Shown here one piece after another: positions 12,518 through 29,780 of a stretch of DNA of 64,000 bases. The notes beneath the pieces are model-generated. The model did not search any database and was not told where the DNA came from. It saw nothing but the letters and a program-made list of their open reading frames with translations. Origin of the DNA: a virus; IMG/VR virus record IMGVR_UViG_3300025693_000002; one strand, given 5' to 3'. Numbering within the stretch: position 1 is the stretch's first letter; each line of letters starts with the position of its first letter. The position numbers were made by a program, and so were the translations under genes.

Positions 12518-12521
12518 GTCA

Positions 12522-15500
12522 TTACTCCTGGAACACAAAGTCTATGGACTTGGTGGTGGCGTTGTACTGAATAGACGCCTTTACGTCGCTCAGACCGGTG
12601 CCGCCCATCTTGAAAGCCCCCGAGTCTCGCACACGCACGTCTCCGGTAACGTCCAGCCGATGAGTAGGGCTGTCATTGCCGAAGCCTGTGTTGCCGCGCA
12701 GGGAAGCGTCTCCACCAACTTGCAGAGCGTTAGTGCCGTCATCGGTAGTACCTACCAGCACCTTGGCAGTCGAAACAAGCGAGGCGATTCCTGCCACGAT
12801 AGCTTGACGGACCCGCTGCGCGGTCCACTTCCTGGAAGTAGTAGAGGTTCCAGCTTCCGCTTCGGCCTGCGTTACTACGCTAGCGGTCCATTCCCGCGCG
12901 TCGGTGAGGCGAGAATCTGTGTTGTCCACCTTCTCGGCGAGCGCAGTATCCAATCCTGTGACTGTGCTAATCGGCAGAGTGGGGATGCGGGCAGCGCTGA
13001 TGGTGCCTGTCGCAATGTTGCTTGCGTTCAAGCCAGTCAAGGCCGCGCCATCACCCGAGAACTTGGGAGCGACCAGAACGCCGGTTGAGCCGGTAAAGGT
13101 TACGTTCGCGTGGCTGTAAAGCACGCCACTGGCGTTGATAACCATCGGGTACGTCCCACTGAAGGAAGTGCCGATACTGGCCAGCTTGGTGGCAGTTGCA
13201 GCGTTGCCTGTGGTGTCCTGGTTTAAGATGGGAATACGCGCAGCATCAATAGTGCCTGTTGTAATTTTGGACGCATCCAGGCTTGGGATATCAGAAGCAG
13301 CCAGCGCTGCGCCGCCGGTCACAATACCCTTGGCGTTGACAGTGACTTTCCCGTACTCACCCGCAGATACGCCAGACGCTGCCAGCGTAAGCACTCCTGA
13401 GGCGTTCCCTGAGCCGTCAAACGACGTAGACCAAGTGCCGTCCCCTGTCATCGAGATCGTGCGAGCTGTGGTCAACTTGGCGGCAGAGCCGGTGGTGTTC
13501 TGGTTCAGCGTTGGAATGCGCGCTGCTGCGAACGTGCCGGTGGTGATCTTGGAAGCGTCGAGACTTGGAATGTCGGCAGCGACGAGAGCCGCCCCTCCCG
13601 TTACGACACCCTTGCTGTTTACTGTGACCTTGGCGTAGGTGCCTGCAGTGACGCCTGAGTTTGCCAATGTCAGAGCAAAGGAAGCGTTTGCGGAGCCGTC
13701 AACAACGGCCGATCCTGTCGCATCGCCGGTAAAGCTGAGAGTTCTAGGGGTGCCCCAGCTAACTGTAGTGATGCCGAAAGAGCCGTCAAAGCTCCTACCA
13801 TTGATCGTAACCGGCGTTGCCAGGCGACTTGCGGTCGCCGCATTGCCGTCAGTGTCGATATTGGAGGTTGCGTTTGGGATGAAACTGGTGAGGCCGGAGA
13901 AGCCACTGAGGTCTGTCACAAGCTCAGTTGTCCAACCCTTCGTGTAAGCCGTAGAGACACCGGAAAACGTCAGCAGCGCCCTTGAGATCGCGACTTGAGG
14001 GTAGTTCCAAACAGTCGTTTCGTCGCCCAGGACAATACAGTTTTTCCCGTTTGCATCGATGCCAAGACGAACCTTAATGTCCATCGAGCCAAACGCAACC
14101 TTGGTTGGGGTGAGCCAGCCAGAGCCGTAGCGGTAGCCGGCCACCAGAATCTTCTCAACCTTGGCCGGGTTGTAGTTGTAGGCGTCGATTTCAAACTGGT
14201 GCATTACCGCGGTGTTCGCACTAGGAGCGCTGAAAACGATGGCGCCAGTGACGTTGCTGTCAGCCTTGAAAAGAGCAACGCCATGTACGTTGAAGTCGAG
14301 AACTGATGGCGAGCCTGGGCTTGCGCCAGACCGGAGGGTGTCGCCGTTTTCCAGAGCAACCGGAACGGTTATCTCGCCGCCAGTAATTTTCGAGGCGTCC
14401 AGGTTCGGAATATCGGACTCAGACAGAGCGAGTCCACCAATCACGATACCTTTCGCGTCAACCTGAACCTTCGCGTACTGACCTGCAGTCACGCCCGAAT
14501 TCTTCAACGTAAAGGCAATTGCGGCGTTAGCGGTGCCGTTGAAACTCGCGGAACCTGTGCCGTCGCCAGTGATCGAGATCGTTCTGGATGTAGCCAGCTT
14601 TGTCGCTGCAGCAGCTGTGCCGGTTGTCGAGACGGCCCCAACGTCAGCAGCCGTCAGCGTAATCGCGCCCCCAGACTTGCCGTTGACGCTGGTGATCGAC
14701 TCGGTGTTGTCGATCTTGTAGAACTCGGTCAAGTTCTTGGAGTACATCAGCGTGTCGCCGACCGCGTAGTCGATACCGGATACAGTGCCGCCTACAGTAA
14801 CCTTCCAGAAACCACTTGCAGATGGCACAGGCGGGTACGCGCCACCCGAGAGATCAACGCCGCCGTACTCAACCAGGCCACCAACCACGCTCGCTGCTGC
14901 CTGCATTACCTCTGCATGCGCGTCTTCAATTTCGGAGTGCATGGTGGTGACTTGCGAGTGCATGGTGGTGACTTGCGAGTGCTTAGTGTCAACTGACGCT
15001 TTCGAGCTGGCTGCGGAGGACGCCGAGCTGGCTGCTTCGCCAGCTTTGGTTGTAGCGGTAGAAGCCGAGCTGGACGCGGAGGACGCGGAACTCGCAGCGG
15101 CTGACGCCGAGCTGGCTGCTTCACTCGCTTTGGTCGAGGCGGTGGCGGCTGACGCAGCTGCTTCACTCGCTTTGGTCGTTACCAGTGACTCGGAACCTGC
15201 CGCTGCCGACGCGCTTGCAGCCGCTTTCAAGGCATGATGCTTGGCGGAATACTTGCCCGTCTCAACTGCAGTGTTTTCCGGGTTGTCAGCCCACTTGCTC
15301 GCTTTCAGCTCTGACGCTGAGGCGTTGGTTGCGGAAGTAGACGCCTCACTTGCTTTGGTTGTTGCCGTAGCGGCAGAAGTGGACGCCTCACTTGCTTTGG
15401 TTGTTGCTGTAGCGGCAGAAGTGGACGCCTCACTTGCTTTGGTTGTTGCCGTCGTGCGCGCCGTCTCAGCGGCAGTCTTGGCGGTCTCAGCGGCAGTCTT

Positions 15501-16724
15501 GGCGGTCTCAGCGGCAGTCTTGGCGGTCTCAGCGGCGGTCTTAGCGGCCTGAGTGGACTCTTCCAGGGAAATGACATTGGTGTGCCGAGTTACAACGTCG
15601 GCTTGCTTCGACGTTACATCGACCTGAATTGACGCCACATCAGCTTGCGACGCTGCCACCAGGCTCTGCTTTTCTGCCACATCAGCTTGCGACGCTGCCG
15701 CCTTGATTGCGTGGTGCTTGGCGGAATACTTGCCCGCCTCAACTGCAGTGTTTTCCGGGTTGTCAGCCCACTTCTGAGCTTTCGCGGACGATGCGCTCGC
15801 TTCACTCGCTTTGGTTGTGGCAGTAGTCGCGGACGCGGCGGCGTTGGTAGCCGACGTTGCGGCATTGGTAGCGCTGGTTGCTGCGGCGCTTTCACTCGAC
15901 GCGGCGCTGGTTGCAGACGATTCCGCGCTGGTCTTAGCAGCCTGGGCTGCTGACTCCAGGGAAACGACATTGCTTTGACGACTTGTCACATCGGCCAAGG
16001 CTGCGTCGGCGGCAACCCGGGAGGTTTCTGCGGCCAACGCATGATGCTTAGCTGAATATTTGCCAGTAGTTACGACGCCGGTAGTCTTCTCGGCCCAATC
16101 GCCAGCTAGGTTTGCTTTAGTGGTCGCAGTAGCAGCGCTAGTTGCGGCAGAGTTTTTGGCCGCTTCCGCCGCCGTCTTGGCCGCTTCCGCCGCCGTCTTA
16201 TAACCCAGAATCTGATCGGCCCATACCTGCTGATCCCCCAGCGCATCCCATTGGGCTTGGGCTTGTGCTTGAAGAGACTCGGTATTCGCTCGCAGCTCGT
16301 CTGTCAGGCTGATCAGGTGATCCGGGCTGTAGATCAGCGTGGTGACGCCGTAGCGATCAGTCAGCGGGAACTTGCCATCGCTCGCCTCACCGCCGTTGCG
16401 AGGGCCATTGATCCACTGGACAAACTCGTCCAGGGACCGTTGACGGTCGGTCATGAACTCGTCGATTTGGAGCATGAGTTCAAAGTTGCTGGCGTTGGTC
16501 AGGTTACGGATAACCGCAAACGCCACGTTCGTCAGGGAAGTGCCTGTGTACACCTCTCCGATGGTGAGCTGAGTGTCCGAGTCTACCCGTGCAATCTCAA
16601 AGAGTCGGCCGTTGACCAGAAGGATGTTACCTACTCGGACTTCGGTCTTAAAAAGAGTGCCGACGCCGGTAACTACGGCGCTGTTGTTAGCGAGACTGAT
16701 TGTCCCGACTCGATACCATGACAT
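12522..16724 (-). CDS. long tail fibre (1400 aa) with Ala/Thr/Ser-rich repeats
   Basis: Recurrent KWADNPENTAVE.GKYSAKHHA fibre motif, repeated TARTI...DGSGNA...GVTAG.Y.KVTV..KG.V.GG units, and a C-terminal TDAREWTASVVTQAEAEAGT..RKWTAQRVRQAI motif shared with ORF 8029..9453. Confidence 0.85.
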   Translation of the reverse strand: MSWYRVGTISLANNSAVVTGVGTLFKTEVRVGNILLVNGRLFEIARVDSDTQLTIGEVYTGTSLTNVAFAVIRNLTNASNFELMLQIDEFMTDRQRSLDEFVQWINGPRNGGEASDGKFPLTDRYGVTTLIYSPDHLISLTDELRANTESLQAQAQAQWDALGDQQVWADQILGYKTAAEAAKTAAEAAKNSAATSAATATTKANLAGDWAEKTTGVVTTGKYSAKHHALAAETSRVAADAALADVTSRQSNVVSLESAAQAAKTSAESSATSAASSESAAATSATNAATSATNAAASATTATTKASEASASSAKAQKWADNPENTAVEAGKYSAKHHAIKAAASQADVAEKQSLVAASQADVASIQVDVTSKQADVVTRHTNVISLEESTQAAKTAAETAKTAAETAKTAAETAKTAAETARTTATTKASEASTSAATATTKASEASTSAATATTKASEASTSATNASASELKASKWADNPENTAVETGKYSAKHHALKAAASASAAAGSESLVTTKASEAAASAATASTKASEAASSASAAASSASSASSSASTATTKAGEAASSASSAASSKASVDTKHSQVTTMHSQVTTMHSEIEDAHAEVMQAAASVVGGLVEYGGVDLSGGAYPPVPSASGFWKVTVGGTVSGIDYAVGDTLMYSKNLTEFYKIDNTESITSVNGKSGGAITLTAADVGAVSTTGTAAAATKLATSRTISITGDGTGSASFNGTANAAIAFTLKNSGVTAGQYAKVQVDAKGIVIGGLALSESDIPNLDASKITGGEITVPVALENGDTLRSGASPGSPSVLDFNVHGVALFKADSNVTGAIVFSAPSANTAVMHQFEIDAYNYNPAKVEKILVAGYRYGSGWLTPTKVAFGSMDIKVRLGIDANGKNCIVLGDETTVWNYPQVAISRALLTFSGVSTAYTKGWTTELVTDLSGFSGLTSFIPNATSNIDTDGNAATASRLATPVTINGRSFDGSFGITTVSWGTPRTLSFTGDATGSAVVDGSANASFALTLANSGVTAGTYAKVTVNSKGVVTGGAALVAADIPSLDASKITTGTFAAARIPTLNQNTTGSAAKLTTARTISMTGDGTWSTSFDGSGNASGVLTLAASGVSAGEYGKVTVNAKGIVTGGAALAASDIPSLDASKITTGTIDAARIPILNQDTTGNAATATKLASIGTSFSGTYPMVINASGVLYSHANVTFTGSTGVLVAPKFSGDGAALTGLNASNIATGTISAARIPTLPISTVTGLDTALAEKVDNTDSRLTDAREWTASVVTQAEAEAGTSTTSRKWTAQRVRQAIVAGIASLVSTAKVLVGTTDDGTNALQVGGDASLRGNTGFGNDSPTHRLDVTGDVRVRDSGAFKMGGTGLSDVKASIQYNATTKSIDFVFQE
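14900..16230. repeat. low-complexity tandem repeats inside the long fibre gene
   Basis: 21-bp x4 at 15460..15543 (TAAETAK), 42-bp x3 at about 15331..15456 (TTKASEASTSAATA), 21-bp x2 at about 14930..14975 (HSQVTTM), and Ala/Ser/Thr-rich runs. Confidence 0.85.
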
Positions 16725-17166: not shown

Positions 17167-17548
17167 TGAACACCTCGACTTTGATTCGACAGGGCTTGTA
17201 GTGACCGTTAAACATCATCAGCTCAGTGACTCCTGGCTCCAGCGAAGACCAAGAAAGCTCGCCATCGTCGATCACGCAAATGCCGTTCGGGTGGTGCAGC
17301 TCGGTTCCTTCGGGAATGCCCGAGACGATCAATTCTTCACCTGGCTTCAATCGGTACACGCCTGATGGTGCGATCTCCGGTCTCGGCTTGACCTCTCCGT
17401 CAATGATCAGGCAGTTCATAGCTGAAATCTCGCCTTCGATTGCAGCCTCCCCCTCCCCTACGTTTATCTCCAGGACGCGCTGATCGTCGGACGTGACAGT
17501 CATGCGGATAACGCCTGTCATCAAGTCGTAAATACTGTAGGTCTTCAT
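17150..17548 (-). CDS. hypothetical protein
   Basis: 132-aa ORF in the tail module. Confidence 0.5.
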   Translation of the reverse strand: MKTYSIYDLMTGVIRMTVTSDDQRVLEINVGEGEAAIEGEISAMNCLIIDGEVKPRPEIAPSGVYRLKPGEELIVSGIPEGTELHHPNGICVIDDGELSWSSLEPGVTELMMFNGHYKPCRIKVEVFNEAGA

Positions 17549-18207
17549 CTCAACCTCTCTGAAATCAATGCCTTCATCTCGTAGTCATACGGATACGTTG
17601 TTGGGCTGTCCGGGGCCAAGTATTTGACCGGCTCCACGGCGCAGTGCTGTCTGTTGGCGAACCAGCCGGCGGTGTTGGTGAATACGGTATATGTGACTTG
17701 ATATGTGACCGCACTCGTTCCGGGGTTCATATCCAGGATTCGCATCATGAATGGGATCGTGTGACCGTAATGCTCCATATCCGAGTCTTGATCGACGTAC
17801 TCCGACATGCCTGTGATGGTGATCGTTTCAGAACCCAGAGAAACGCCATTTCTCGTTACCGAAAGAGGCAGGCCAACCAACGGGTTTACCTGGCCTTCCG
17901 CCCATGCCCGGAACGGTATCTGAATTTCCAAATACGAACCTGGGAAGAGTGGAGGTGGTACTTGAAACGAATGGACGTAAGTCTTTAGGGTTCCGCCGCT
18001 GATAGATTGTGTAGAGGTCGGGGTTGAGTTGATATCCACCCCCAAGAATGTGTCTCTGGACACCGCTCCATTGCGCACGTTGATGGTATCGACAACTTCA
18101 ACAGCCTCAGCCGAAAAAACACCTGAGAAGGTGCCTCCAGCAGCGTCCATTCGACCCCTGAAAACTGCGTCAGAGTTAAACTCCGCCCACCCAGACGGTA
18201 GCGTCAT
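17545..18207 (-). CDS. receptor-binding-like tail protein, paralog 3
   Basis: N-terminus MTLPSGWAEFNSDAVFRGRMDAAGGTFSGVFSAEAVEVVDTINV is shared with ORFs 18204..18653 and 18650..19315. ATGA coupling. Confidence 0.55.
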   Translation of the reverse strand: MTLPSGWAEFNSDAVFRGRMDAAGGTFSGVFSAEAVEVVDTINVRNGAVSRDTFLGVDINSTPTSTQSISGGTLKTYVHSFQVPPPLFPGSYLEIQIPFRAWAEGQVNPLVGLPLSVTRNGVSLGSETITITGMSEYVDQDSDMEHYGHTIPFMMRILDMNPGTSAVTYQVTYTVFTNTAGWFANRQHCAVEPVKYLAPDSPTTYPYDYEMKALISERLR

Positions 18208-18653
18208 GCTCCTGTCTCCCTGATATACCGAACAAGGATATAACCCGAATCAGACCAGCCAGTTGAATTGGCCATGAGGTCAATCGTGTGACTGCCAGCG
18301 TCAACATCAACAAGCGCGACAAGAGGTCTGAATTGAACCAGCCCGGTTACTCCAGATCGGATCGGGATGGTTACGCCGTCAAGACGAAGACCGTTGCACA
18401 GACTCCCGTATGCAACGATCTCGACCTTCTTCCAGGAATCCGGCATCACGAAATTAAAACTAAGTGCGGGCTGTCCCGAAGTAACGGATTTGCCAGAGTG
18501 AGCCGCCCTCTCTTGGAATGTGATCTGGTTTGTCTTGATGTTGATCGTGTCTACCGCGTCGATAGCTTCGACGGTGAAACGGCCTTTGAATACGCCCGTT
18601 GCGGCAACCAGGTCTCCTCTAAACATGACGGAACCAAACTCGACGAAACTCAT
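18204..18653 (-). CDS. receptor-binding-like tail protein, paralog 2
   Basis: N-terminus VEFGSVMFRGDLVAATGVFKGRFTVEAIDAVDTINI aligns with paralogs 1 and 3. ATGA coupling on both sides. Confidence 0.55.
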   Translation of the reverse strand: MSFVEFGSVMFRGDLVAATGVFKGRFTVEAIDAVDTINIKTNQITFQERAAHSGKSVTSGQPALSFNFVMPDSWKKVEIVAYGSLCNGLRLDGVTIPIRSGVTGLVQFRPLVALVDVDAGSHTIDLMANSTGWSDSGYILVRYIRETGA

Positions 18654-19315
18654 TTTCGGATGTACTCCGCCAGCAGGGTCACGTTATTGAAGGTCGAAGA
18701 GAACGACCCTGGCGACTTCAAGCACTCGTAATCGACGTGAATCGCCACGGTGTACACGCCCGGGGTTTCAACCTCAAACAAGTAGTCTCTCGCCACTCTT
18801 GGGTGGGAGTTCACGATGTTGTTGAAAAGCGACCACATTACAAAAAACTCAACGTCCGAGGCGATCTGGTTTCCATTTGGGTCGAGCAGAACCAGAGCCA
18901 GTCTCTCCATCAATCTGGTGTTCCCAGCTGTATTTAGAACTCGATCCATGTGCGCTGAGCACCGAATCTTCCCTCCCGTTGCGTCAGAGACGTTTACCGC
19001 TACCGACGCGACGTAAGGGATGTTGTCTACGATGTACCTGTAGCCCGTGTTCGTCAGCGTCCCTGAGTTGACGTTCACATTTCTCGAAGCGACCGTCGCC
19101 AGAGACGTGATTGCTACCGCGCCTTTGACGAAGTTGATACCGCTAACCGCGTTGACGGCGCCGGCAGTCAATTTTCCAGAGAACGTCCCCTCCATCGCCT
19201 GAATCTCACCAGCGAACTTGGCGTTGTTGAACTCTGCTTGATAGGCGTCTGAAACCATCACCCCGTCGCCACGGTCGTACTCAAGGGTGATGGTTCCTAC
19301 TTTTTTATGCACCAC
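18650..19315 (-). CDS. receptor-binding-like module, paralog 1; probably the -1 frameshift extension of J
   Basis: No ATG and no spaced SD; only GTG 19315. The frame is exactly -1 relative to J at the A_AAA_AAG site. Contains AEFNNAKFAGEIQAMEGTFSGKLTAGAVNAVSGINF. Confidence 0.6.
   Translation of the reverse strand: MVHKKVGTITLEYDRGDGVMVSDAYQAEFNNAKFAGEIQAMEGTFSGKLTAGAVNAVSGINFVKGAVAITSLATVASRNVNVNSGTLTNTGYRYIVDNIPYVASVAVNVSDATGGKIRCSAHMDRVLNTAGNTRLMERLALVLLDPNGNQIASDVEFFVMWSLFNNIVNSHPRVARDYLFEVETPGVYTVAIHVDYECLKSPGSFSSTFNNVTLLAEYIRK
19253..19306 (-). promoter_or_regulatory. candidate -1 programmed ribosomal frameshift signal (A_AAA_AAG plus 11-bp stem-loop)
   Basis: Heptamer 19306..19300 lies in the J frame directly before TAG 19299..19297. 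A perfect stem 19295..19285 / 19263..19253 starts 4 nt downstream. GGGGUGG lies 5 nt upstream. Confidence 0.6.
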
Positions 19316-22300
19316 CCCGATACGCCGGCCACATAGTTGTCACTCTGGATATCACCAACCACCGCGTTACGCAGGACGACATTTCCGCTGTTGGCGTCCA
19401 CAGTGAAAACCGGAACGACGGTTGTCGCGCCAGGCTTAATCACGTTGAATTTGTCAGCGACAATGTTGAACGCGCTGGTGGAGCCACTGCCTGTTGCTGG
19501 GGTGGATAGCAAGTCAAAACCGACGATATGCCCGTTGGTGTTGATCTTGACCGCGTACTGCGCTTTCAAACCGTCAATTGAGGTTGCCGCCTGAGTGATT
19601 GAGGTTTCTGCGTTGCCCACTCGGGTAGTCAGGGTGTTGACGGACGAAGTGATCGCGCTATCACCGTTGGCTCGGGCGGTTTGCTCGCTGGTAATTGCAG
19701 ACTCTGCATCCTCGACTCTGCTCACCAAAGTGGACAGCTGATTGCTTAACGCAGTGTCGGCGTTTGCGCGCGTGGTTTGCTCAGTCGTGATGGCAGACTC
19801 TGCGCTGCCAACCCTGCTTGTTAGGGCGTTCAGCTGATTTGTCAGAGCGGTGTCAGCGTTGGCCCGGGTGGTTTGCTCAGTCGTGATGGCAGACTCTGCA
19901 GTGCCTACCCGAGTTGTCAGCGTGTTCAGCTGATTTGTCAGAGCGGTATCGGCATTCGCACGGGTGGTCGCCTCGGACGTGATCGCCGCGTCAGCGTCGT
20001 CAACCCGACTAACCAGTTCGGTAATGTCCGTCGCCATTGCCGCATCAGCGTTGGCCCGAGTAGTAGCTTCTGAGGTAATTGACGATTCTGCAGCGCCTAC
20101 CCGAGTTGTCAGTGCGTTCAGCTGAGTTGTCAAAGCTGAGTCGGCATTCGCCCGAGTAGTAGCTTCTGAGGTAATTGAAGACTCTGCGGTGCCTACCCGA
20201 GTTGTCAGCGCACTAAGTTGGGTGCTCAAAGCTGAGTCAGCGTTGGCCCGAGTAGTAGCTTCTGAGGTAATTGACGACTCTGCGTCATCAACTCGGCTGG
20301 TCAGTGTATTCAGTTGGGTACTCAACGCTGAGTCGGCATTCGCTCGCGTAGTAGCTTCTGAGGTAATTGACGACTCTGCGTCATCAACTCGGCTGGTCAG
20401 TGTATTCAGTTGGCTAGTCAGAGCGCTGTCAGCGTCCGCCCGGGCCGACTGCTCCTGCAGAATGGCCGCCTCAACATCATCAGTGACCTTCGCTGAAAGC
20501 TGGTTGATTTGCGCTGTCAGCGCGCTATCAGCGTCTGCGCGGGCGATCTGCTCTTGAGCGATACTCGCTTCGATATCGTCAGTAACCTTTGCAGACAGAG
20601 CGTTGAGCTGGGTCGTCAAAGCACTGTCAGCGTCTGCGCGGGCGATCTGTTCTTGCGCGATCTGGGCTTGGATATCCTCACCAACCTGCGCTTGAAGAGC
20701 GCTGATCTGCTGGGCCAAGGCCGAGTCAGCAGTTGCGCGAACCTGCGCCTCGTCGTAAACGCTGGACTGAATTTCATCACCCACCCGGGCTTCCAGCTCA
20801 GTGATCAGAACTGCCGCAGCCTCGTCGGCGTCAACGAGCGTCCCGATCTGCTGATTGACGTATGCCTCAAGATTGTTGAACGCCTCTTTGCGCTCAAAAA
20901 CCTCTGTCTTGGCAATGTCATTTGCGGTCTGAATGTCGGCAGTGAGGCGACTGACAACCTGAGAAACGGTCTCGACATTCTCGAAGGTGTCCTGCCACTC
21001 GTTCTCCAGGTTGGAGAACCGATCAAGCACGTCTTCACCAAGATCGGTCTCTTTAATCCCATCAGGGATCAGATCGATCAGCTCGATTGGATCAGGCTCA
21101 GCAGTCTTAACCGAGATACCGGCCGCGCTCGGGGCGAAATCAGACACCATGTCGTTAGACAGGATGTTCACTGCCCTAACCCAATAGGTGTACCAGGTAT
21201 TCGCTTTAAGGCTGACGTGTGGATAGTGGTTGTTACCTGTGATCGCGAGAAGGCTTGCGACTGAGAAGTCCTGGCTCTGACCCTCGGCGCCCCATACCTC
21301 GTATCGATACAGGTTCTTGTTCGCAGCCCACTCGTCGATGTTGCCCCACTTGATCTCAATCAGATTGGCGCCGGCTTCTGCAGTAACGCTGGAAGGCGGT
21401 GCAGGCGCATTCGGAGCGCCGGAGGCGACGACATACTCATGAGTCGTGACAGACGCAAGCGACGGCTTGTTTCCTCGGATATCAACGGGGACGAGCTTGA
21501 CCCTGATGGTCCCTTGAGGGACCGTCACGGAAAACGCGGAAGCGTTTGCTCCACGCAGCTCCCAGCTGGAGTCATCAATCGAAACGTGAACCTCGGAGTA
21601 AAGGTATTCGCCGCTCGTATGCTGCCAGGAGAAAGACACTTCCGATCGGTATACAGCGCCCTCAAGGTAACGTCGCTCGTTAAAGCCGTTGAACGCTACA
21701 TTGCCTAAAACATTGTTAGAAATAGGTGGCGTCGGCTTGTAGCCGATAACAGCGTCGCTGTATGCCTCGTCGCTGTACTCGATGGCAGAAATCTTCCGCC
21801 ACAAATCGTCTGTACCGGAAATGTTGATTACAGTGAAATTCTGGATCGAGGTGTTTTTCAGGCCAAACGCCCAAACCGTTTCCTCGCGCGGAGCGCTGCT
21901 TAGCGGCGAGGCTAAATGAAGGTCGAAAACATCGCCTTCGGCTTCGACGAGAACATCGCGAGTCTCGATAACGTCTGTATCGACCAGCTGGATAGTGTCT
22001 CCAGGCATGATGCCTGTTGCGCCGTCCAGAATCAGACCATGCCGACCGTAACTATCGATAATCGGCTCTTCGATTCGGAAATCTCTGCCGGTGCTGACAT
22101 GACGCAGACGACGGAATCGGTCGAAGTTTTCCACATTGAAGCCGAAGCTCGGGAATACCGTGTTGCCAAGAATTGACTCAGCCTCGCCCATCCACTGAAC
22201 AACGGTGTCATGACGAACCATCGCCACAAACTGTTGACCTGGATTCACAGGCACCGATCGGTCCAGCTTTAGCAGCGTGTTGGTGGAGCCGGGTGCGAGC

Positions 22301-24255
22301 AGACCGCCAAAACCCCAGTCAGGCATGTCGTGCTGCAGAGCGATCACGTCGCCAATGGTGCAAGCAATAGCCTCAAGGGGCGCTTCAAAGCTAACCGTTT
22401 TCAGCAGTCGGTTGACGTTCAGAGCGAGCGTACCTTCGCGTGTCGCTTGCTCGACGTTATCGACCCCGTACATCGTCATTTCAGAAATGCGCTGCTCGTC
22501 GCCACGCTCACGCGCTTTCTTGTCGTCAACAATGACGGTCTTCTTCTTGCCCAGGTCGTCGCGGTCGAAGTAGCTGACGTGAACCTCGTTGGCTCGGTCT
22601 TCGGCATCCATCCAGTCGATGCCCATTGAGCCTTTCTTGATGTTGCCAACCGAGAAAAGCTGAACCGGCCGTTTGATGCCGATTGTCGCTACCTGCATGC
22701 GAGTGCCAGAGCGAACCGGGTATGCCCGCCCTACCTTAAAAATCGGCAGCAGCGCGTCCCAGACGTTCGTTTTCTGGTCAATGACGCCGTTGAACTTGAG
22801 GTTGTTCTCGACGCAGAAAGCTGCCCACTGGCGGAAGTAGCTGAGCTGGATTCGGCTCATCTTCATCTTTCCGCCGTAGCGACTGTTTGTCAGCGCATCA
22901 AGCGCGATCCATGCCGGGTTGTCGCTCCACTCTTCCTTGAAGTCCCCGGTCAGCGCGTCCCAAACCTTAACCTTGCGACCTTTCACTCTGCTCAATACGG
23001 TGGGAATGCCGTTGAGCTGGTCGTTCATCTTGATCCGCAGACCCAGGAGCGCCGTGTAGCGATAGGAAATATCGTCCAGCAGAATCTCGTTTACGTCGGT
23101 CAGGGTAATCGAGTTGGAAACATCATCCCTTTCGTCTTCCTGCGTATGAGTGAAGCGCATGGTGTAGCGCTTGGACTTATCCAGGTCGCGAGAGTAGTAA
23201 GACCGGCGTAAAGGCGCTGTCGATTTTTTGTAAATCGAGATCGTCCGCTGCTCGGTAATAAGGGTGGTGCCGTTCAGCTGCTCGGTAACGAGGTCTGGAA
23301 GGAGCGGAAGCCACCCTTCAGTTCCTTCCTCCTGAATTTCGGCGATGAAGGCAGTTCCGAAAGGCTTGATGCCGTCTTCATCGTCAAGGCGGTGCAGGCC
23401 GCGAGGCAGCGTTATATCGATTCTTACTCGATCAACAGGGTCTGTCAGGGTGTGATATGTGTAAACCGTCTTCTTGAGAGCCGCGCCTTTGTTCACAGGG
23501 CGGACGATATCGCTGAAATACGGGATTACGTCCTGATCACGGTCGCCAAATCGCTTGAAAACTTGGACTTCACTGTAGTTCTCGATAGGCTGGCCGTTGA
23601 TGTGGATATCTTCGATACCCTCGATCGGCCCCTCGCCCAAGTTGATCAGTGCATTCAAATACTGGTCGTCACCGTCGTTTTCGGTGTACAGCTGCAGGTA
23701 GTTACCCGCCTGCCAGGCTTCGCCATAAACAACCTGAACCGGGATATCTACGGTTGACTGGTTCTTTGGGCCGTCGATGCCGTAGGAAACACTGTTGCCC
23801 ATGCTGTTGTTGGGCATTTCAGGCGTTGGAGGTGGGAGCAGCGCGTTAATCAGAAGCGTTCCCGCGACTGTAACGCCTACAGTCACGGCCGTTGCGGCTG
23901 CGCCCGCCAGCCCAAAGTAGCTTGTGGCTAACCAGGGGGCAAAGATAGCCAAGGCTACCAGTGCAACGATTCGCATGATCTGCTTACCACCGCCGTCACC
24001 CCCGCCAAGCATGATTGGGGCAACAACAACACAGTCGTCAGCGTTCAGGTAGGTTTTCGACCATTCAGATCGATGAACCATGCGCCCAGAGACTGACACA
24101 GCCCACTCACCCTGGAGCGGCCCGAGATACTTGGCCAGGCTTCGTTTTGGATTGTACTTCTTGTGAACAAGGTTCCGGGACTCCGCCGGCGTCAGCGGGT
24201 TCGCGATAAAAACAAACGGAACTTTATTCTTCTTCAGAATCGACACTTCCGACAT
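19297..24255 (-). CDS. tail tip host-specificity protein (lambda J-like) fused to an N-terminal gpI-like tail assembly domain
   Basis: gpI-like segment: ...VVAPIMLGGGDGGGKQIM + TM helices + IPVQVVYGE. J-like blocks: LINLGEGPIEGI, NPAWIALDALTNSRYGG and the C-terminal KAQYAVKINTNGHIVGF...FNIVADKF. About 13 tandem 32-aa repeats. Start trimmed from 24351 to ATG 24255. Confidence 0.85.
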   Translation of the reverse strand: MSEVSILKKNKVPFVFIANPLTPAESRNLVHKKYNPKRSLAKYLGPLQGEWAVSVSGRMVHRSEWSKTYLNADDCVVVAPIMLGGGDGGGKQIMRIVALVALAIFAPWLATSYFGLAGAAATAVTVGVTVAGTLLINALLPPPTPEMPNNSMGNSVSYGIDGPKNQSTVDIPVQVVYGEAWQAGNYLQLYTENDGDDQYLNALINLGEGPIEGIEDIHINGQPIENYSEVQVFKRFGDRDQDVIPYFSDIVRPVNKGAALKKTVYTYHTLTDPVDRVRIDITLPRGLHRLDDEDGIKPFGTAFIAEIQEEGTEGWLPLLPDLVTEQLNGTTLITEQRTISIYKKSTAPLRRSYYSRDLDKSKRYTMRFTHTQEDERDDVSNSITLTDVNEILLDDISYRYTALLGLRIKMNDQLNGIPTVLSRVKGRKVKVWDALTGDFKEEWSDNPAWIALDALTNSRYGGKMKMSRIQLSYFRQWAAFCVENNLKFNGVIDQKTNVWDALLPIFKVGRAYPVRSGTRMQVATIGIKRPVQLFSVGNIKKGSMGIDWMDAEDRANEVHVSYFDRDDLGKKKTVIVDDKKARERGDEQRISEMTMYGVDNVEQATREGTLALNVNRLLKTVSFEAPLEAIACTIGDVIALQHDMPDWGFGGLLAPGSTNTLLKLDRSVPVNPGQQFVAMVRHDTVVQWMGEAESILGNTVFPSFGFNVENFDRFRRLRHVSTGRDFRIEEPIIDSYGRHGLILDGATGIMPGDTIQLVDTDVIETRDVLVEAEGDVFDLHLASPLSSAPREETVWAFGLKNTSIQNFTVINISGTDDLWRKISAIEYSDEAYSDAVIGYKPTPPISNNVLGNVAFNGFNERRYLEGAVYRSEVSFSWQHTSGEYLYSEVHVSIDDSSWELRGANASAFSVTVPQGTIRVKLVPVDIRGNKPSLASVTTHEYVVASGAPNAPAPPSSVTAEAGANLIEIKWGNIDEWAANKNLYRYEVWGAEGQSQDFSVASLLAITGNNHYPHVSLKANTWYTYWVRAVNILSNDMVSDFAPSAAGISVKTAEPDPIELIDLIPDGIKETDLGEDVLDRFSNLENEWQDTFENVETVSQVVSRLTADIQTANDIAKTEVFERKEAFNNLEAYVNQQIGTLVDADEAAAVLITELEARVGDEIQSSVYDEAQVRATADSALAQQISALQAQVGEDIQAQIAQEQIARADADSALTTQLNALSAKVTDDIEASIAQEQIARADADSALTAQINQLSAKVTDDVEAAILQEQSARADADSALTSQLNTLTSRVDDAESSITSEATTRANADSALSTQLNTLTSRVDDAESSITSEATTRANADSALSTQLSALTTRVGTAESSITSEATTRANADSALTTQLNALTTRVGAAESSITSEATTRANADAAMATDITELVSRVDDADAAITSEATTRANADTALTNQLNTLTTRVGTAESAITTEQTTRANADTALTNQLNALTSRVGSAESAITTEQTTRANADTALSNQLSTLVSRVEDAESAITSEQTARANGDSAITSSVNTLTTRVGNAETSITQAATSIDGLKAQYAVKINTNGHIVGFDLLSTPATGSGSTSAFNIVADKFNVIKPGATTVVPVFTVDANSGNVVLRNAVVGDIQSDNYVAGVSGWCIKK
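19590..20780. repeat. about 13 tandem 96-bp (32-aa) repeats in the C-terminal third of J
   Basis: The unit TQLNTLTSRVDDAESSITSEATTRANADSALS occurs with variants. An identical 56-nt segment recurs at 20261 and 20357. Confidence 0.9.
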
Positions 24256-24622
24256 ACCTGTAGAAACCCTCAATGCGTTTTTGCCAAGCGTCAATTCGTT
24301 CAACGACCGGAGTTGTTGTGCCTTCCCAGGCGTGGATGAACTCGTACTCATTGATGACGAAGCCGATGTGGCACAAATGGCCCATAATGCGAATAAGCGC
24401 TACTGCGCCTGGCTGGCACTCGCAGCGCTCCCACTCGTCCATCTGGGTCGCCATCAGTGCGTGATTTACAGCCAGGTTTTCAGAAAACTGTCTAGGCGGA
24501 AGCTCGATGCCATTGCGACGATGCATTTCGACCACAACCCCATAACAGTCGAGGCCGCCGTCACTTAGCGACCTGCCGCCGTATTTGAAAGGGGCTTGAA
24601 GAATGTCGAGGTAGTCCATCAA
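24224..24622 (-). CDS. NlpC/P60-type tail assembly protein (gpK-like, C40 peptidase half only)
   Basis: GGLDCYGVV...HIGFVI...IHAW Cys-His pattern. Positioned between the L-like and I/J-like genes. Confidence 0.75.
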   Translation of the reverse strand: MMDYLDILQAPFKYGGRSLSDGGLDCYGVVVEMHRRNGIELPPRQFSENLAVNHALMATQMDEWERCECQPGAVALIRIMGHLCHIGFVINEYEFIHAWEGTTTPVVERIDAWQKRIEGFYRYVGSVDSEEE

Positions 24623-25658: not shown

Positions 25659-28600
25659 TTAAGCTCCTCTTACCGCTTCGCGAAGCGGGCCTGGTTTGGA
25701 GACCGCGCTCAACACTACGTCGATGATGTACTGCTTGCCGTCAAACTTCGCCTCTCCCTGCTGCTTGCCGTCTACCTGCTGCCCAGATTGGTTGATGACG
25801 TTCACCTGAACAGCCGGAGCCATTTGCTTCTGCTCGCCGCCAGCGCCTGTGAGCTGGCCATTCAGCGTAACTGGAATCGTCCGGCCGTCCGGCAGCGGGA
25901 CATAGGCTTCTGGCATCGACCCTTCGCCAAACACTGCGACCTGCGGGCTGTTTGCGATTCCGCCGTTGGCGTACTGCTTGAGCTGAGCAACGCCCCACTC
26001 GGTCATGATCCCGCCGTTTGCGAATCCGTATGCCCCCGCGTACCCGCTGGTGCTGTAGCCGGCATTGCCTGCTGCTGAGCTGACGTTCTGCTGGCCTCCA
26101 CCAAAGCCGGAAAATCCAGCTGAAAACGCGCCGATCGCTGTCTCGGCAATGCCGGCGGCCATCTTGGCCATCTGAATTTTCAGAATCTCTTTCAGGACGT
26201 GGGCAACGAAGTCCGAGATTTCCAACTTACCCGTGACCATGCCGTCAACCAGCGTGTCAACGAAGCTGTCCATCGAGGACTTCCACAGCTGCTTGTACGA
26301 CTCGGAGGCATCCTTGTTTGCTCTGATCCACTCCTGGAGACCACTCTCCTGCTGACGCTTGTATCTCGCATCAAGCGCCTCTTTGTAAGCAATATACGCT
26401 GCGTAGTCGTCACCGCCCTTGGCAAGCAGTTCTTCGTTTTTGGCGTAATACTCTTCCAACCATGCGATCTGGCGGTCGTACTCGGTCTTTGCCAGTTCAG
26501 ACTGGGTTTTCAGAGAGTCCTGAATCTGCCGGGTTTGCTCGTTCAAGCGCTTGCTGGTATCGCTAACAGCTAGTTCATCGAGACGAGCGTTGGTGTCGGC
26601 AAAGTTCTTGATGGTCTGCTCGATCTTGCCGGCCAGCTCGGTGTCGCCCAGGCTCAATGCAGTCGCCATGTGCTTCTGCAGTGTCTCGGTCAGCTTCTCC
26701 AGCTCGTCGCGATACCGCTGAGCGTCGGCAGAAGCGTTCAGCCAGGGGTTTTCGTTCTCGACCTTGTTCAGCTTGGCGCCGACCTGAGTCTCGATCTCCC
26801 CTACCCGCTCAATCGCTTCCTTGTAGCCGTTCGCAGCTTCCTTGAGGTTCTTGATCTTCTGATCAGCCTCGTAAGCTGCGGCCGCCAGCTGGGTTCCCTG
26901 CGCAACCAGCGCGTCGAAGTTGGCCGGCTTGGTATCCAGATTCTCGACGGTGGCGAACAGCTGCGCCAGGTACGGGTTGGTTTCGTCGATGTTCGCTCGC
27001 AGTCGCGCAACCTTGACGTTCAGACTGTCAACAAACTTGCTGAGCGGGTCGAACGAAGGTTTACCCTCCCCTCCTGGATTGACAAGCGTATCGTCAAGGG
27101 TCAGGCGCTTCTGGTTGTCCAGACTTTCTCTGGCTCTGTTAAGACCGTCCGTAAATGCAGCAATAAGCCGATCTTGCTTCTCAACCTCTTGGCGAAGATT
27201 CAGATTGGCGTCATTGCCCATCAGGTCAAAAACGCGCTGCGCTCGTGCCTTGGCCAGCTCCGCCTTCTCCAAAGCGGCCTCGTATGACTCAATCTGCTCC
27301 TCTATCAGAACCATGCCGATCTGACCAAGGCCGGCGTTGAACTGCTCCTGGTTGATCTCGCCCGAATCCCGCTGCTCGTAAAGCCGGCGCTTATTCAGGT
27401 TGTAATTGTTGCTGATCTGAGCGAACGCTTTTTCCTGGGCTAGAATTTCAGCCTGAGCGAACCGCTCGCCATTGATTTTTGCAATATTTTCTCTTGCAGT
27501 GATGAGATCGGCTTCAATCTTTTCGATGTTGGCGATAGCCCTGAGCTTCGCCTCTTCCGACCGACTCTGTTGAGCCTCGTTGAATCCGGTCGATGTGTCG
27601 AACAGCCCATCAAACCTTTTCTTGAAATCATCCTGAGCGCGCTCGTAAGCGCGCTCCAGAACGCCAAGCTCGTCAATATTGGTCAGAGCGCCATTGAGGT
27701 CAAGAACCGCCTTTTCAGCTTCCTTTAGGGACTCCTTGTAGCTCTGCCACGCAGCGACCCCAGCAATTGCAGCTGTCGCGGCCAGACCGATTGGGCCGGC
27801 TATGACGCCTGCAGCTGCGCCCAGACCAGACAGGCTGACTCGGGCAACTCCTGCAGCTGCGCCTGTCGATGTAATGGATCGGCTCGCGACTGCCAAAGGG
27901 TTGTTCAGCCCAAGAGCGCTATCGCTAAGAGCCTTCATCCCCTGACCCATAGTCAGGCTTCTCGCTCCCGCGCTACCCAAGGCTGTGGTCATGACCGCAA
28001 GTCCACCACTTACCGCGCCAATAGCTCCGCGCGCAATGCTCAAGAGCTTCATGGCGCCGTAGAGATACAGAATCGCCTTACCCCACTCGTAGATTTCCTT
28101 GCGGTTTTCCGCAATCCACTTCACGCCAGTCGCGGCAACCTTCACCAACTCGGCCAGCGCAAGGCCAAGATCGCGAGCGCTGGCCAGCACTTCCGGTCGG
28201 TTTAGAATTTCGGTGATTTCGTTCAGTTCGTGGGTGAGGGTTTTGAAGTACCCACCCTCCGCATAGCCGTCAGCTTCAAGACCGCCAATTGCCAGGGCGA
28301 TTCGACGAGCGCCGGTTTCAAACTGAGCTACAGCCCCGCCCCAGGTGTCCATCATCGCCGCAGCTCGACCGCGGAAACTCCGCTCAAGCTCTTCCATCAT
28401 CGCCTGAACTGCAGGTTTTGCTGAAACGCGACCCAAACTGATCTGTTTTACGAGGTCAGAATATGTAGTGCTCAAAGCATCTGCCATCGCGTTAATTGCG
28501 GTTGGCACGCTCTCGCCGAGCTGCTGTCTGAGTTCTTCCATACTGACAACGCCCTTGCCGCTCATCTGTTGCAAGGCTACAGCTGCGCGCTCAAGGTTTT

Positions 28601-29105
28601 GGTCGGTGCCGCCGAACGCCGCTACAGAGTCCAAAAGCGTGTTTAAACTATTTTGAGCTGGATTCATTCCAGCTACCCGGAGCTTAACGAAGGCGTTGGT
28701 GATTGAGTTCAGGTTGAATGGCGCGGAGGCCGCTCTGTTGAGAAGGGCTTGAACGTCTTGAATCGCTTCGGCGGTTGCCGCAGCCCCGTCTCTCTGACTA
28801 GAGAAGTTGCGCATCAGCTGAATGGATCGCTCCATGTCGCTGTTTACGCGAACAATCGACTTCTGCCACCCAATAGTTACGTCGGATACGGTCTGAATCG
28901 CAGATCGAATCAGACCCAGCGTGATTACCGTATCGCGAAACGCCCGGCCCCAGCTGCGCTGCCCAGCCTCTGCTTTGCGAACAACCTTGTCGGCTTCTTC
29001 TGCGCCTCGAATGAAGCGGCGAAGTTCGCCGTCCGCCTTCTTGATGTTGAAAGAAAACTCGTCGCCGTCAACCGAAAGCTCAACAACCAACCGACCCAGA
29101 CTCAT
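25659..29105 (-). CDS. tape measure protein
   Basis: 1148 aa, helical, with Gly/Ala-rich hydrophobic stretches. Follows the G/T chaperone pair. Confidence 0.9.
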   Translation of the reverse strand: MSLGRLVVELSVDGDEFSFNIKKADGELRRFIRGAEEADKVVRKAEAGQRSWGRAFRDTVITLGLIRSAIQTVSDVTIGWQKSIVRVNSDMERSIQLMRNFSSQRDGAAATAEAIQDVQALLNRAASAPFNLNSITNAFVKLRVAGMNPAQNSLNTLLDSVAAFGGTDQNLERAAVALQQMSGKGVVSMEELRQQLGESVPTAINAMADALSTTYSDLVKQISLGRVSAKPAVQAMMEELERSFRGRAAAMMDTWGGAVAQFETGARRIALAIGGLEADGYAEGGYFKTLTHELNEITEILNRPEVLASARDLGLALAELVKVAATGVKWIAENRKEIYEWGKAILYLYGAMKLLSIARGAIGAVSGGLAVMTTALGSAGARSLTMGQGMKALSDSALGLNNPLAVASRSITSTGAAAGVARVSLSGLGAAAGVIAGPIGLAATAAIAGVAAWQSYKESLKEAEKAVLDLNGALTNIDELGVLERAYERAQDDFKKRFDGLFDTSTGFNEAQQSRSEEAKLRAIANIEKIEADLITARENIAKINGERFAQAEILAQEKAFAQISNNYNLNKRRLYEQRDSGEINQEQFNAGLGQIGMVLIEEQIESYEAALEKAELAKARAQRVFDLMGNDANLNLRQEVEKQDRLIAAFTDGLNRARESLDNQKRLTLDDTLVNPGGEGKPSFDPLSKFVDSLNVKVARLRANIDETNPYLAQLFATVENLDTKPANFDALVAQGTQLAAAAYEADQKIKNLKEAANGYKEAIERVGEIETQVGAKLNKVENENPWLNASADAQRYRDELEKLTETLQKHMATALSLGDTELAGKIEQTIKNFADTNARLDELAVSDTSKRLNEQTRQIQDSLKTQSELAKTEYDRQIAWLEEYYAKNEELLAKGGDDYAAYIAYKEALDARYKRQQESGLQEWIRANKDASESYKQLWKSSMDSFVDTLVDGMVTGKLEISDFVAHVLKEILKIQMAKMAAGIAETAIGAFSAGFSGFGGGQQNVSSAAGNAGYSTSGYAGAYGFANGGIMTEWGVAQLKQYANGGIANSPQVAVFGEGSMPEAYVPLPDGRTIPVTLNGQLTGAGGEQKQMAPAVQVNVINQSGQQVDGKQQGEAKFDGKQYIIDVVLSAVSKPGPLREAVRGA

Positions 29106-29112
29106 TCACACC

Positions 29113-29364
29113 TCATTCAATCAGCTTCAAAAACTTCGCTCTCGCGCCTGGCTCGGGTGCTACACGAATGTTCCGCCGAAGCCTCGACGTTTCGCCTATT
29201 TCCAGCGTCAGTCGGCTGATGTAGTCATTCACGTTGTTCAGCTTTGCTTGGCTGTCCGGTGGTGAAGTGACGAGATTTGCCTGGACCGCGCGGAGTTCCG
29301 ATTCAGCTCGGATGCGTTCAATTTGGCGGTTCATCGACCAGAACCGCCGAGCTGGCATCTGCAA
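29113..29364 (-). CDS. tail assembly chaperone frameshift extension (gpT-like)
   Basis: Frame is -1 relative to ORF 29442..29780 and stays open from 29484 downward with no stop. No SD before ATG 29364. Confidence 0.55.
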   Translation of the reverse strand: MQMPARRFWSMNRQIERIRAESELRAVQANLVTSPPDSQAKLNNVNDYISRLTLEIGETSRLRRNIRVAPEPGARAKFLKLIE

Positions 29365-29441
29365 AACGTGGGTGTCAGTCCACCCGTAGAACCAGCAAAA
29401 TCGGGAGAAGAGAAAGGCGAAGTCGATAGCCTCGACGGCTT

Positions 29442-29780
29442 CTACTCCCCCGCTTTGGTTTCCTTCACGCCTTCGTCGGCTTGGCTAGCCGCCTCAGCAA
29501 CAAGCGCTTCCGGGTCTTGATTGGCGAACTGCAGCAGCGCAACCATTTGGCGCAGTGACATAGAGCGGATAACCGAAACTTCGCAGTCCGGGATTACCGC
29601 TTGTACAGTCGCAACCATCGAATTCAGGAAGTCTTCTTCGGTGCTGGTGCTTGCGCGCTTGGCGATATTGATCGACTCGATCATCTGCCCAACGCTGCGG
29701 TCATTTACGGCATAGCGTTTGCCGCGCAGATTCACGAAGCGCTCGATAGTGGTCAGCTCGTCAAGGTTCAGAAGTTCCAT
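29442..29780 (-). CDS. tail assembly chaperone (gpG-like)
   Basis: 112-aa acidic protein between the major tail and tape measure genes. Confidence 0.7.
   Translation of the reverse strand: MELLNLDELTTIERFVNLRGKRYAVNDRSVGQMIESINIAKRASTSTEEDFLNSMVATVQAVIPDCEVSVIRSMSLRQMVALLQFANQDPEALVAEAASQADEGVKETKAGE
29445..29484 (-). promoter_or_regulatory. G/T frameshift window (no canonical heptamer; G GGG GAG run)
   Basis: The -1 frame is open only from 29484 and the G stop is at 29444..29442. The only homopolymeric run is GGGGG at 29451..29447. Confidence 0.35.

Follow-up and report, generated by a model that had tools for sequence, protein, structure and literature searches.

Programmed -1 ribosomal frameshifting, the slippery heptamer A_AAA_AAG and virion proteins extended by frameshifting are all known already; what is new in the locus described here is the apparent use of such a signal at a J host-range determinant. 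The locus lies on the minus strand of a 64,000-nucleotide (nt) stretch of viral DNA (IMG/VR record IMGVR_UViG_3300025693_000002, called the window at its full length), at the 3' end of a gene for a J-type central tail fibre, or host specificity, protein. In Escherichia coli dnaX, which gives rise to tau and gamma, an identical A_AAA_AAG is read by tRNA-Lys, with a stem-loop a few nt downstream and a purine/G-rich element upstream. The dnaX Shine-Dalgarno lies 10 nt upstream of the heptamer, whereas at the J gene a GGGGUGG of putative role ends 5 nt upstream and the frame-0 stop codon abuts the heptamer. The outcomes also differ, as the shift in dnaX leads to near-immediate termination and a shorter protein, while here a stop would be bypassed and 216 amino acids (aa) added. 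Transposable elements of the IS3 family (e.g., IS911 and IS150) join OrfA to OrfB through an A_AAA_AAG-type heptamer in a short overlap of open reading frames (ORFs), followed by a downstream structure, and make both a fusion and a short product. However, they encode a mobile-element transposase rather than a virion structural protein, and there is no sequence relationship with the present locus.

Among phages, the G/GT pair of lambda offers a -1 frameshift within the tail cluster, a short and a long form at a set ratio, and a position that is conserved across phages. In contrast to the case described here, G and GT are chaperones that are absent from virions; the J site lies five genes further downstream, in the tip fibre gene, and has another heptamer. 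Structural proteins extended by recoding include the T7 capsid (10A/10B), SPP1 gp17.1/gp17.1* (whose extension is a surface-exposed, adhesion-type domain), the capsid and tail proteins of Listeria phage PSA, and the capsid of Lactobacillus phage A2. As would be the case for J, a minority, C-terminally extended virion form of these capsid and tail-tube proteins is co-assembled with the short form. To our knowledge, none of these recoded proteins is a central tail fibre or host specificity protein, and none gains a distal receptor-binding-type head. The literature searched, which left most subscription journals outside it, reports G/T-type, capsid and tail-tube cases only, with no frameshift in a J-type or central tail fibre gene; no frameshift is mentioned in the Nickievirus genome papers, and all public records annotate two genes at the junction. 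Uninterrupted J fibres (lambda gpJ in 8xcj/8xck, JenK1 gp20, phiKO2 gp21, 9ze4, and 9l9p) share with the present protein the Phage_Tail_Tip domain, the motif SxNYxxGxxGW-x-[I/L]-x-K-x-G...EF..RG, and a distal head. They differ in having one reading frame, and the structural match is weak (TM-score 0.34), the head here having a C1q/TNF-like look.

The signal at the J stop codon

According to its domain content and homology, the 1684-aa product of frame 0 (J-short) is a J-type central fibre, because PF09327 (Phage_Tail_Tip) is matched at residues 1586-1684 (E-value 1.8e-8) and its counterpart in phage nickie bears the annotation 'central tail fiber J'. Homologs of J carry FNIII-A_GpJ and Phage_Tail_Tip domains. 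As expected of a J gene, its position is downstream of the tape measure and the M/L/K/I-like minor tail genes, and it encodes a large protein that has Phage_Tail_Tip near the C-terminus. A lambda-type J would also carry a contiguous C-terminal receptor-binding domain, and this is lacking in frame 0, where the stop comes right after ...SGWCIKK. A distal domain is reachable from J only through the -1 frame, and contiguity would be found only in the product of slippage (J-long). On the minus strand, the J 3' end reads ...UCG GGG UGG UGC AUA AAA AAG UAG, and the features of the junction are listed below.

19297..24351, minus strand: J-short, 1684 aa, the central tail fibre / host specificity protein as read in frame 0 (ORF list, translation)
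19312..19318, minus strand: G-rich GGGGUGG in the Ser-Gly-Trp codons, a possible Shine-Dalgarno-like stimulator (sequence, codon conservation)
19300..19306, minus strand: slippery heptamer A_AAA_AAG, set as X_XXY_YYZ relative to the J frame (sequence, motif scan)
19297..19299, minus strand: frame-0 stop UAG, abutting the 3' end of the heptamer (sequence)
19253..19295, minus strand: putative stimulatory hairpin, with 5' arm 19295..19285, 21-nt loop 19284..19264 and 3' arm 19263..19253, after a 4-nt spacer from the heptamer (RNAfold)
18650..19300, minus strand: -1 frame extension of 216 codons, from GUA 19300..19298 to the stop at 18652..18650, with a predicted beta-hairpin, neck motif and jelly-roll head (translation, homolog alignment, AlphaFold2, Foldseek)

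The original prediction, made from the letters of the window, had placed the J stop at 19299..19297 after ...SGWCIKK, the heptamer at 19306..19300 with its -1 frame exactly that of ORF 18650..19315, an 11-bp perfect stem with a 21-nt loop 4 nt past the heptamer, and GGGGUGG 5 nt upstream of it. Each of these was found in the sequence at those coordinates. In the stem, AACCAUCACCC (19295..19285) pairs with GGGUGAUGGUU (19263..19253); RNAfold lengthens it to 14 bp, with a minimum free energy of -25.6 kcal/mol (z-score -3.34), and 0 of 200 dinucleotide shuffles fold equally well. GGGGUGG also creates an in-frame GUG of the -1 ORF. The anatomy is that of a classical frameshift cassette: an in-phase X_XXY_YYZ heptamer as in dnaX and the IS3 family, a -1 ORF that overlaps J, and a hairpin beginning 4 nt past the heptamer. 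Rfam holds no family for the element. The hairpin was also considered as an intrinsic terminator and rejected as such, there being no U-tract after it in the window or its relatives.

J-short ends with ...SDNYVAGVSGWCIKK (...SGWCIKK), within its Phage_Tail_Tip domain, while the slipped product would read ...GVSGWCIKK-VGTITLEYDRGDG.... The whole -1 ORF (19315..18650) has 221 codons, of which 216 would follow the shift, giving a J-long of 1900 aa (1684 + 216); the prediction of a long extension in the -1 frame thus stood, with its count of about 217 residues reduced by one.

Conservation of the junction among relatives

A megablast of the region against a phage collection gave no match, and tblastn was needed. 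With the hypothetical fused C-terminus as query, it matched the Pseudomonas syringae Nickievirus phages Nican01, nickie, ZY21, phiK7B1, and hairong at 38-52% identity, in two pieces across a 'tail protein' and a 'hypothetical protein'. The J gene and the next gene overlap by 19 nt in the 3 of 3 Nickievirus records inspected, with the DNA tcggggtggtgcCTAAAAAAGTAGG..ccatcaccc.. at the overlap. At the protein level, 21 clusters of stand-alone calls of ~200 aa were found, nearly all of which start with M-x-x-KK[V/I]G[T/S]ITLEYDRGDG. A phmmer search of 1.8 billion representatives added further ~200-aa proteins that diverge past their first residues (e.g., MDHKKVDEDNPGIVPLNEDD... and MPKKVDPVRLSF...), yet still begin x-x-KKV whatever follows. 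KKV corresponds to AAA AAA GUA, in which the heptamer is followed by the two opening bases of a UAG or UAA stop. One protein, P0037, at first looked like a counter-example without a KKV start, but it is a short gene call at a locus with the full signal.

DNA was compared at 19 distinct loci, made up of 15 junction sequences (the window and close relatives) and four distant loci (L022-L025), a set that spans cultured Pseudomonas Nickievirus phages and distant marine contigs (L023 is a TARA ocean scaffold). The heptamer, in phase and then UAG, is present in 19 of 19, with the pattern [A/C]UA AAA AA[G/A] UAG. It is A_AAA_AAG in 18 loci and A_AAA_AAA in L015, which has seven A residues. The homologs without a slippery site that the original prediction had named as evidence to the contrary did not appear among them. 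Because AAAAAAG is rarer than expected in the window (5 occurrences vs. 10.3 expected), and because heptamer, phase and stop are repeated at all of these related loci, a chance origin of the signal is not tenable. Over 367 nt, the 15 junction sequences share a mean nt identity of 65%, as against 90-96% from -15 to +45 around the heptamer. Four further homologs (P0036, P0041, P0034, and P0025) had no locus in viral contigs, which places the predicted UAA-stop and KKA variants outside the DNA-level count. A protein-guided scan of metagenome contigs with the extension-homolog alignment confirmed nothing. A separate alignment of distant homologs proved too diverse as a seed. When the last 100 aa of J served as query in a word-indexed homolog search, there was one match only.

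In the four distant loci (L022 1811..2590, L023 2282..3016, L024 2363..3019, and L025 461..1477), the upstream gene is not a giant J; it encodes a short Phage_Tail_Tip tip protein of 218-338 aa that ends in ...NY.PG..GW.[I/L]KK. A_AAA_AAG and the adjacent UAG are unchanged there despite a different peptide after KKV. Since the junction is joined in these loci to a short tip protein instead of a giant J, it appears to behave as a portable module boundary.

The fused chain and uninterrupted fibres

In the split clade, frame 0 stops mid-way in a family-wide motif. The slipped product restores GW-x-[I/L]-x-K-x-G...EF..G, which runs uninterrupted in single-ORF J-type fibres. For instance, the J protein of E. 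coli phage JenK1 aligns across the junction in a single frame, with IQSNNYVAGSAGWKLNKAGDAEL (GWKLNKAGDAEL)...RFTGEIQATSGTFKGTVEA lying opposite IQSDNYVAGVSGWCIKK before the junction and VGTITLEY...KFAGEIQAMEGTFSGKLTA after it. Likewise, P0040 (601 aa) and P0032 (554 aa) run on in frame from ...SGSAGWKIDKAGQ... into the neck motif and a distal domain. Among solved structures, the J-type chains 9ze4_N and 9l9p_S are also gapless across the junction, with weak matches (E-values 0.03 and 0.09). Fusing the frames lengthens the Pfam match to Phage_Tail_Tip from profile positions 6-117 to 6-126 and raises its score from 34.7 to 42.7 bits. The predicted -1 fusion of J to a distal receptor-binding-like domain is thus matched by a chain that aligns gaplessly with uninterrupted J-type proteins.

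A contrast set was assembled by scanning JGI metagenome contigs for DNA encoding DNY.x.GVSGW, with the sequence after the motif left unspecified. All 16 of its loci continue in frame 0 as GW-x-[I/L]-x-[K/R]-x-G...EF...RG, and the heptamer is present in 0 of these 16 uninterrupted loci. Because the contrast loci and the single-ORF J fibres run uninterrupted, the split is, on sequence comparison, a derived state of one clade inside a large family of uninterrupted fibres.

Selection on codons and RNA structure

The codons that make up the heptamer are uncommon ones. In the structural genes of the window, ATA accounts for 5% of Ile codons, CTA for 3% of Leu, AAA for 29% of Lys, and GGG for 14.5% of Gly. 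In the frameshift loci, the codon before the A-run is always ATA or CTA and the first Lys codon is always AAA. The Gly codon before Trp is GGG in 18 of 19 frameshift loci, in contrast to a mix of GGA, GGC, GGT, and GGG in the 16 uninterrupted relatives. This frozen GGG argues for some nucleotide-level role, and GGGGUGG may pair with the anti-Shine-Dalgarno as a stimulator. As a dnaX-like element, however, it has a shorter spacing than in dnaX, is not kept in the distant L023, and also creates the GUG.

The codons of the hairpin 5' arm, NCC AUC ACC, are identical in 15 of 15 junction sequences, whereas other invariant four-fold residues of the alignment use 3-4 codons. The position of the partner arm, on the other hand, varies. 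In 12 sequences, the 5' arm pairs with the Arg-Gly-Asp-Gly codons (CGG GGU GAU GG; site A), which gives a 12-bp stem and a 7-nt loop. In the window and in L004/L018, it pairs with the next codons, GGG GUG (A/G)UG GU, encoding GV[M/V]V (site B), and the Arg-Gly-Asp-Gly codons are switched to the non-pairing synonyms CGU/AGA GGC GAC GGG. In constrained folding, the 12-sequence group reaches -18.6 to -24.6 kcal/mol at site A vs. -3.7 to -12.0 kcal/mol at site B, while the window and L004/L018 reach -17.7 to -22.2 kcal/mol at site B vs. -6.4 to -7.9 kcal/mol at site A. In all 15 sequences, the 5' arm has one strong partner and no second, so that the two sites are mutually exclusive. The 3' arm was relocated at least twice among close relatives, because the site-B class sits in two separate places of a flank-based tree, beside L013 and beside L010. 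Each hairpin exceeds the stability predicted from 500 synonymous recodings of its peptide, of which a fraction of 0-0.06 folded at least as stably.

Among the distant loci, L022 has an unrelated stem (GGACAAUC/GAUUGUCC) 7 nt past the heptamer, and L025 has another unrelated stem (CCUCCGUC/GACGGAGG) inside a fold of -26.3 kcal/mol (z-score -3.2). The relocated partner arm, the unrelated stems in L022 and L025, and the stability in excess of synonymous recodings together show that selection acts on RNA structure and not on sequence alone. The stem, whose conservation had been put forward as a check on the original prediction, is thus kept through relocation of one arm or through a stem of unrelated sequence. 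Heptamer and stop are universal among the loci, while the hairpin is frequent but not obligatory.

Proposed mechanism and alternative explanations

Taken together, comparative sequence evidence makes it likely that the site at the J 3' end is a programmed -1 ribosomal frameshift. A ribosome on AUA AAA AAG, with tRNA-Lys in both the P and A sites, would meet the hairpin at the mRNA entrance, and during translocation both tRNAs could then re-pair one base back, from AAA-AAG to AAA-AAA, in the tandem slippage known from dnaX and the IS3 family. Because UAG abuts the heptamer, there would be a second chance, through P-site slippage while the A site awaits release factor 1 (RF1). The slipped fraction would read on as GUA GGA ACC... 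to give the 1900-aa J-long, with the trans-frame junction region ...SGWCLKKVGSITLE, whose last 216 residues would form a short beta-hairpin, the neck motif and a receptor-binding-type jelly-roll head. Ribosomes that do not slip would terminate and release the 1684-aa J-short, and the long:short ratio would be set by the RNA signal. We infer slippage itself, its efficiency and the presence of both forms in the tail tip from these features. For comparison, the dnaX heptamer alone has given about 14-16% frameshifting in vitro (preprint).

Several observations weigh against this reading. The searched literature contains no mention of this site, nor proteomic, ribosome-profiling or reporter data on it. 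Part of the nt conservation is driven by protein, as the peptide KKVGTITLEYDRGDG is itself extremely conserved. All 19 loci have a -1-frame GUG that precedes the stop by 9-15 nt, partly due to the Gly-Trp codons, and the frozen GGG could serve this GUG rather than stimulate slippage. The stem of L024 is weaker and more distant, and in L023 there is no convincing hairpin after the heptamer. A dnaX-type signal would, finally, require a host that decodes both AAA and AAG with a single tRNA-Lys(UUU); the window itself holds no tRNA genes.

The GUG leads to the most serious rival, namely that J and the downstream ORF are two separate proteins, the latter being started at GUG 19315/19312 or by termination-reinitiation after the UAG with a back-up of 12-15 nt. 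A product of ~23 kDa would then dock non-covalently on the end of J, and the A-run and hairpin would be by-products of the overlap or would serve coupling. The ubiquity of the upstream -1-frame GUG (19 of 19 loci) fits this model, as do the public annotations and gene callers, all of which list the ORF separately. A free module is also viable, as two downstream paralogs with the same neck motif clearly stand alone, and the ATG of J itself has a weak Shine-Dalgarno as well. The start candidates of the -1 ORF, however, are poor. The original prediction had held that it contains no ATG, that GTG 19315 is its sole possible start, and that this lacks a correctly spaced Shine-Dalgarno; GTG 19312 and an internal ATG at 19258 (codon 20) do exist, but no candidate is preceded by a well-placed Shine-Dalgarno. 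Its strength for GUG 19315 is -2.6 kcal/mol, and a G-run directly abuts GTG 19312 and ATG 19258 (0 spacing). ATG 19258 was ruled out as the true start: it falls inside the stem's 3' arm, no spacer separates it from the G-run, and homologs carry Val, Ile, Lys, or Leu in its place. The public gene call on this contig (P0001, 202 aa) nevertheless starts there, and other relatives are called from the overlap GUG or from internal Met codons (P0036, P0037, and P0041), an inconsistency that is a symptom of unrecognised recoding. Separate translation would also leave unexplained why rare ATA/CTA and AAA codons are fixed as a perfect in-phase heptamer, why a hairpin is re-created 3-7 nt past it from different sequences, and why frame 0 ends inside a motif that is continuous in uninterrupted relatives. 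It is thus considered distinctly unlikely as an account of the locus, and it may coexist with frameshifting.

Other explanations have a still smaller share. The ~60-nt conserved block might mainly be a recombination joint for swapping distal receptor-binding modules, with the A-run carried along. Beyond about residue 70 of the extension, identity falls sharply, being about 70% before this point and about 30% past it, and one junction joins giant J or 218-338-aa tip proteins, as this would predict; a joint may well be an additional role of the block, but the -1 offset, the rare-codon heptamer and the unrelated hairpins of L022 and L025 would have no explanation, and this is very unlikely to be the main role. 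Transcriptional slippage, in which RNA polymerase adds one A in the A6 run so that some mRNAs join J to the extension, would have an identical J-long outcome, and one relative (L015) does have A7. Productive bacterial transcriptional slippage, however, generally needs about 9 or more A/T, which counts against slippage on A6, and the in-phase X_XXY_YYZ, the adjacent stop and the downstream hairpin would be left without a role; this explanation is even less probable than a recombination joint. Lastly, A6 runs are error-prone on some platforms and uninterrupted relatives exist, so that the A-run might be suspected of holding a homopolymer error, or a formerly continuous J of having been inactivated by a frameshift mutation (a decay that we take to resemble that of the stf gene of laboratory lambda PaPa). 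The same run length and phase recur in 19 distinct loci, drawn from the independent isolates nickie, Nican01, and ZY21 and from independent NCBI, ENA, Logan, and IMG/VR metagenome assemblies, which excludes the assembly error that the original prediction had named as a way in which it could fail. The downstream ORF is also intact and under purifying selection in all loci, and the probability left to artefact or decay is close to negligible.

The extension and its paralogs

Homologs of the extension number 21 clusters (90% identity) and 23 representatives (50% identity), and PHROGs and Pfam have no family for the extension or for either paralog. A modest AlphaFold2 model built from a 21-sequence alignment (pLDDT 67.6) has an N-terminal beta-hairpin and a beta-sandwich at residues 68-220, with the neck (residues 29-65, AEFN..F.G...GTFSG.LTA) unmodelled. 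The best PDB match of this model in Foldseek is lambda gpJ(713-1132)/LamB (8xcj_F, E-value 2e-5, with a weak TM-score of 0.34), followed by TNF-like lectins, the carbohydrate-binding domain of a cyanophage fibre, and C1q/TNF heads. Among the top BFVD matches are a Vibrio phage protein named 'Tip attachment protein J central straight fiber' and collagen-like proteins that bear C1q heads. The extension is thus modelled as a jelly-roll head like those that trimeric fibres carry distally, which is all that such weak scores allow. Its homologs share about 70% identity over the first 60 residues and about 30% in the head, as would be expected of a host-range determinant.

Two stand-alone paralogs follow the extension:

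18204..18653, minus strand: paralog 1, 149 aa, beginning at the neck motif common to the family; start codon and extension-ORF stop overlap as ATGA
17545..18207, minus strand: paralog 2, 220 aa, beginning MTLPSGWAEFN...; start codon and the stop of the ORF before it overlap as ATGA

Both begin at the neck motif AEFN..FRG...G.F.G..TA..V..IN and diverge afterwards. The block AEFN..F.G....G.FSG, previously noted in the extension and in paralog 2, is indeed common to the two (E-value 1e-7) and is found in paralog 1 too. The trio of extension and two paralogs is kept in nickie and in metagenomic relatives, with equivalents of both paralogs in nickie and L008; the paralogs occupy 6781..7805 in L002 and 3623..4692 in L008. 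If the long:short ratio were roughly 1:2, there would be one extended chain per J trimer, and paralogs 1 and 2 could fill the other head positions in trans, giving a C1q-like heterotrimeric receptor-binding head whose covalent tether to the fibre would be a single chain. In line with such an assembly, both paralogs start exactly at the motif shared with the extension (AEFN..FRG...GTFSG.LTA..V..IN). The idea is speculative and on the whole unlikely; if true, it would explain why the split is kept and not repaired by a 1-nt insertion, and why the trio is kept in every complete relative.

Implications

The significance of a frameshift at this site would lie in the protein concerned, a host-range determinant, and in its conservation across a sizeable phage clade. 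If J-long is real, the Nickievirus group and many metagenomic relatives are mis-annotated at that determinant, with the head listed as a separate 'hypothetical protein'. Recoding would then join the ways in which phages build and tune their adsorption apparatus, with the head-bearing share of fibres or chains fixed by an RNA signal that could respond to the translation state of the host (tRNA-Lys modification, RF1 level). The junction would also provide a natural, compact and portable joint for host-range engineering in P. syringae biocontrol phages, as well as a well-sampled natural experiment in which a frameshift hairpin is kept by arm relocation inside a nearly invariant peptide.

Genomic surroundings

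The window appears to be a portion of a siphophage genome of ~108 kb; the source of P0001 is a 108,044-bp JGI contig, and the GC content is about 55%. On the minus strand, the gene order begins with the G/T-like chaperones, followed by the tape measure gene (25659..29105), three genes for minor tail proteins and the 1684-aa J. After J come the -1 ORF, its two paralogs, two small ORFs (one with DUF4376), a 1400-aa fibre, and a 904-aa LamG-domain protein. The G/T-like pair (29113..29780, minus strand), upstream of the tape measure, consists of a G-like ORF (29780..29442, PHROG 893) and a T-like ORF in the -1 frame that is open from about 29484, with PHROG 1131 matching 29364..29113. The last codons of the G-like ORF are ACC AAA GCG GGG GAG UAG. 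A canonical X_XXY_YYZ heptamer is missing from the overlap, and the only slippery-looking candidate is G_GGG_GAG at about 29452..29446. The phage probably uses a second, different frameshift site at this pair.

Within J, residues ~1200-1570 (19754..20739, minus strand) form a long tandem array with a unit of 96-99 nt (32-33 aa) and 73-84% identity between units (...SSITSEATTRANADSALSTQLNTLTSRVDDAE...), which probably folds as a coiled-coil shaft. The length of J differs among relatives, from about 1300 to 1684 aa, which suggests that repeat expansion is behind this variation. Downstream of the J cassette, the 1400-aa fibre protein (12522..16724, minus strand) has Ala/Ser/Thr-rich repeats, with 21- and 42-nt tandem repeats at 14935..16199, and the 904-aa protein (9824..12538, minus strand) has three Laminin_G_3 (concanavalin-like) stretches; both are candidates for further adhesins. 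Among the small ORFs, a methyltransferase-domain gene is inserted between the paralogs and the DUF4376 gene in L010 (4622..5380) and L018 (4608..5357), and is absent in the window and in nickie.

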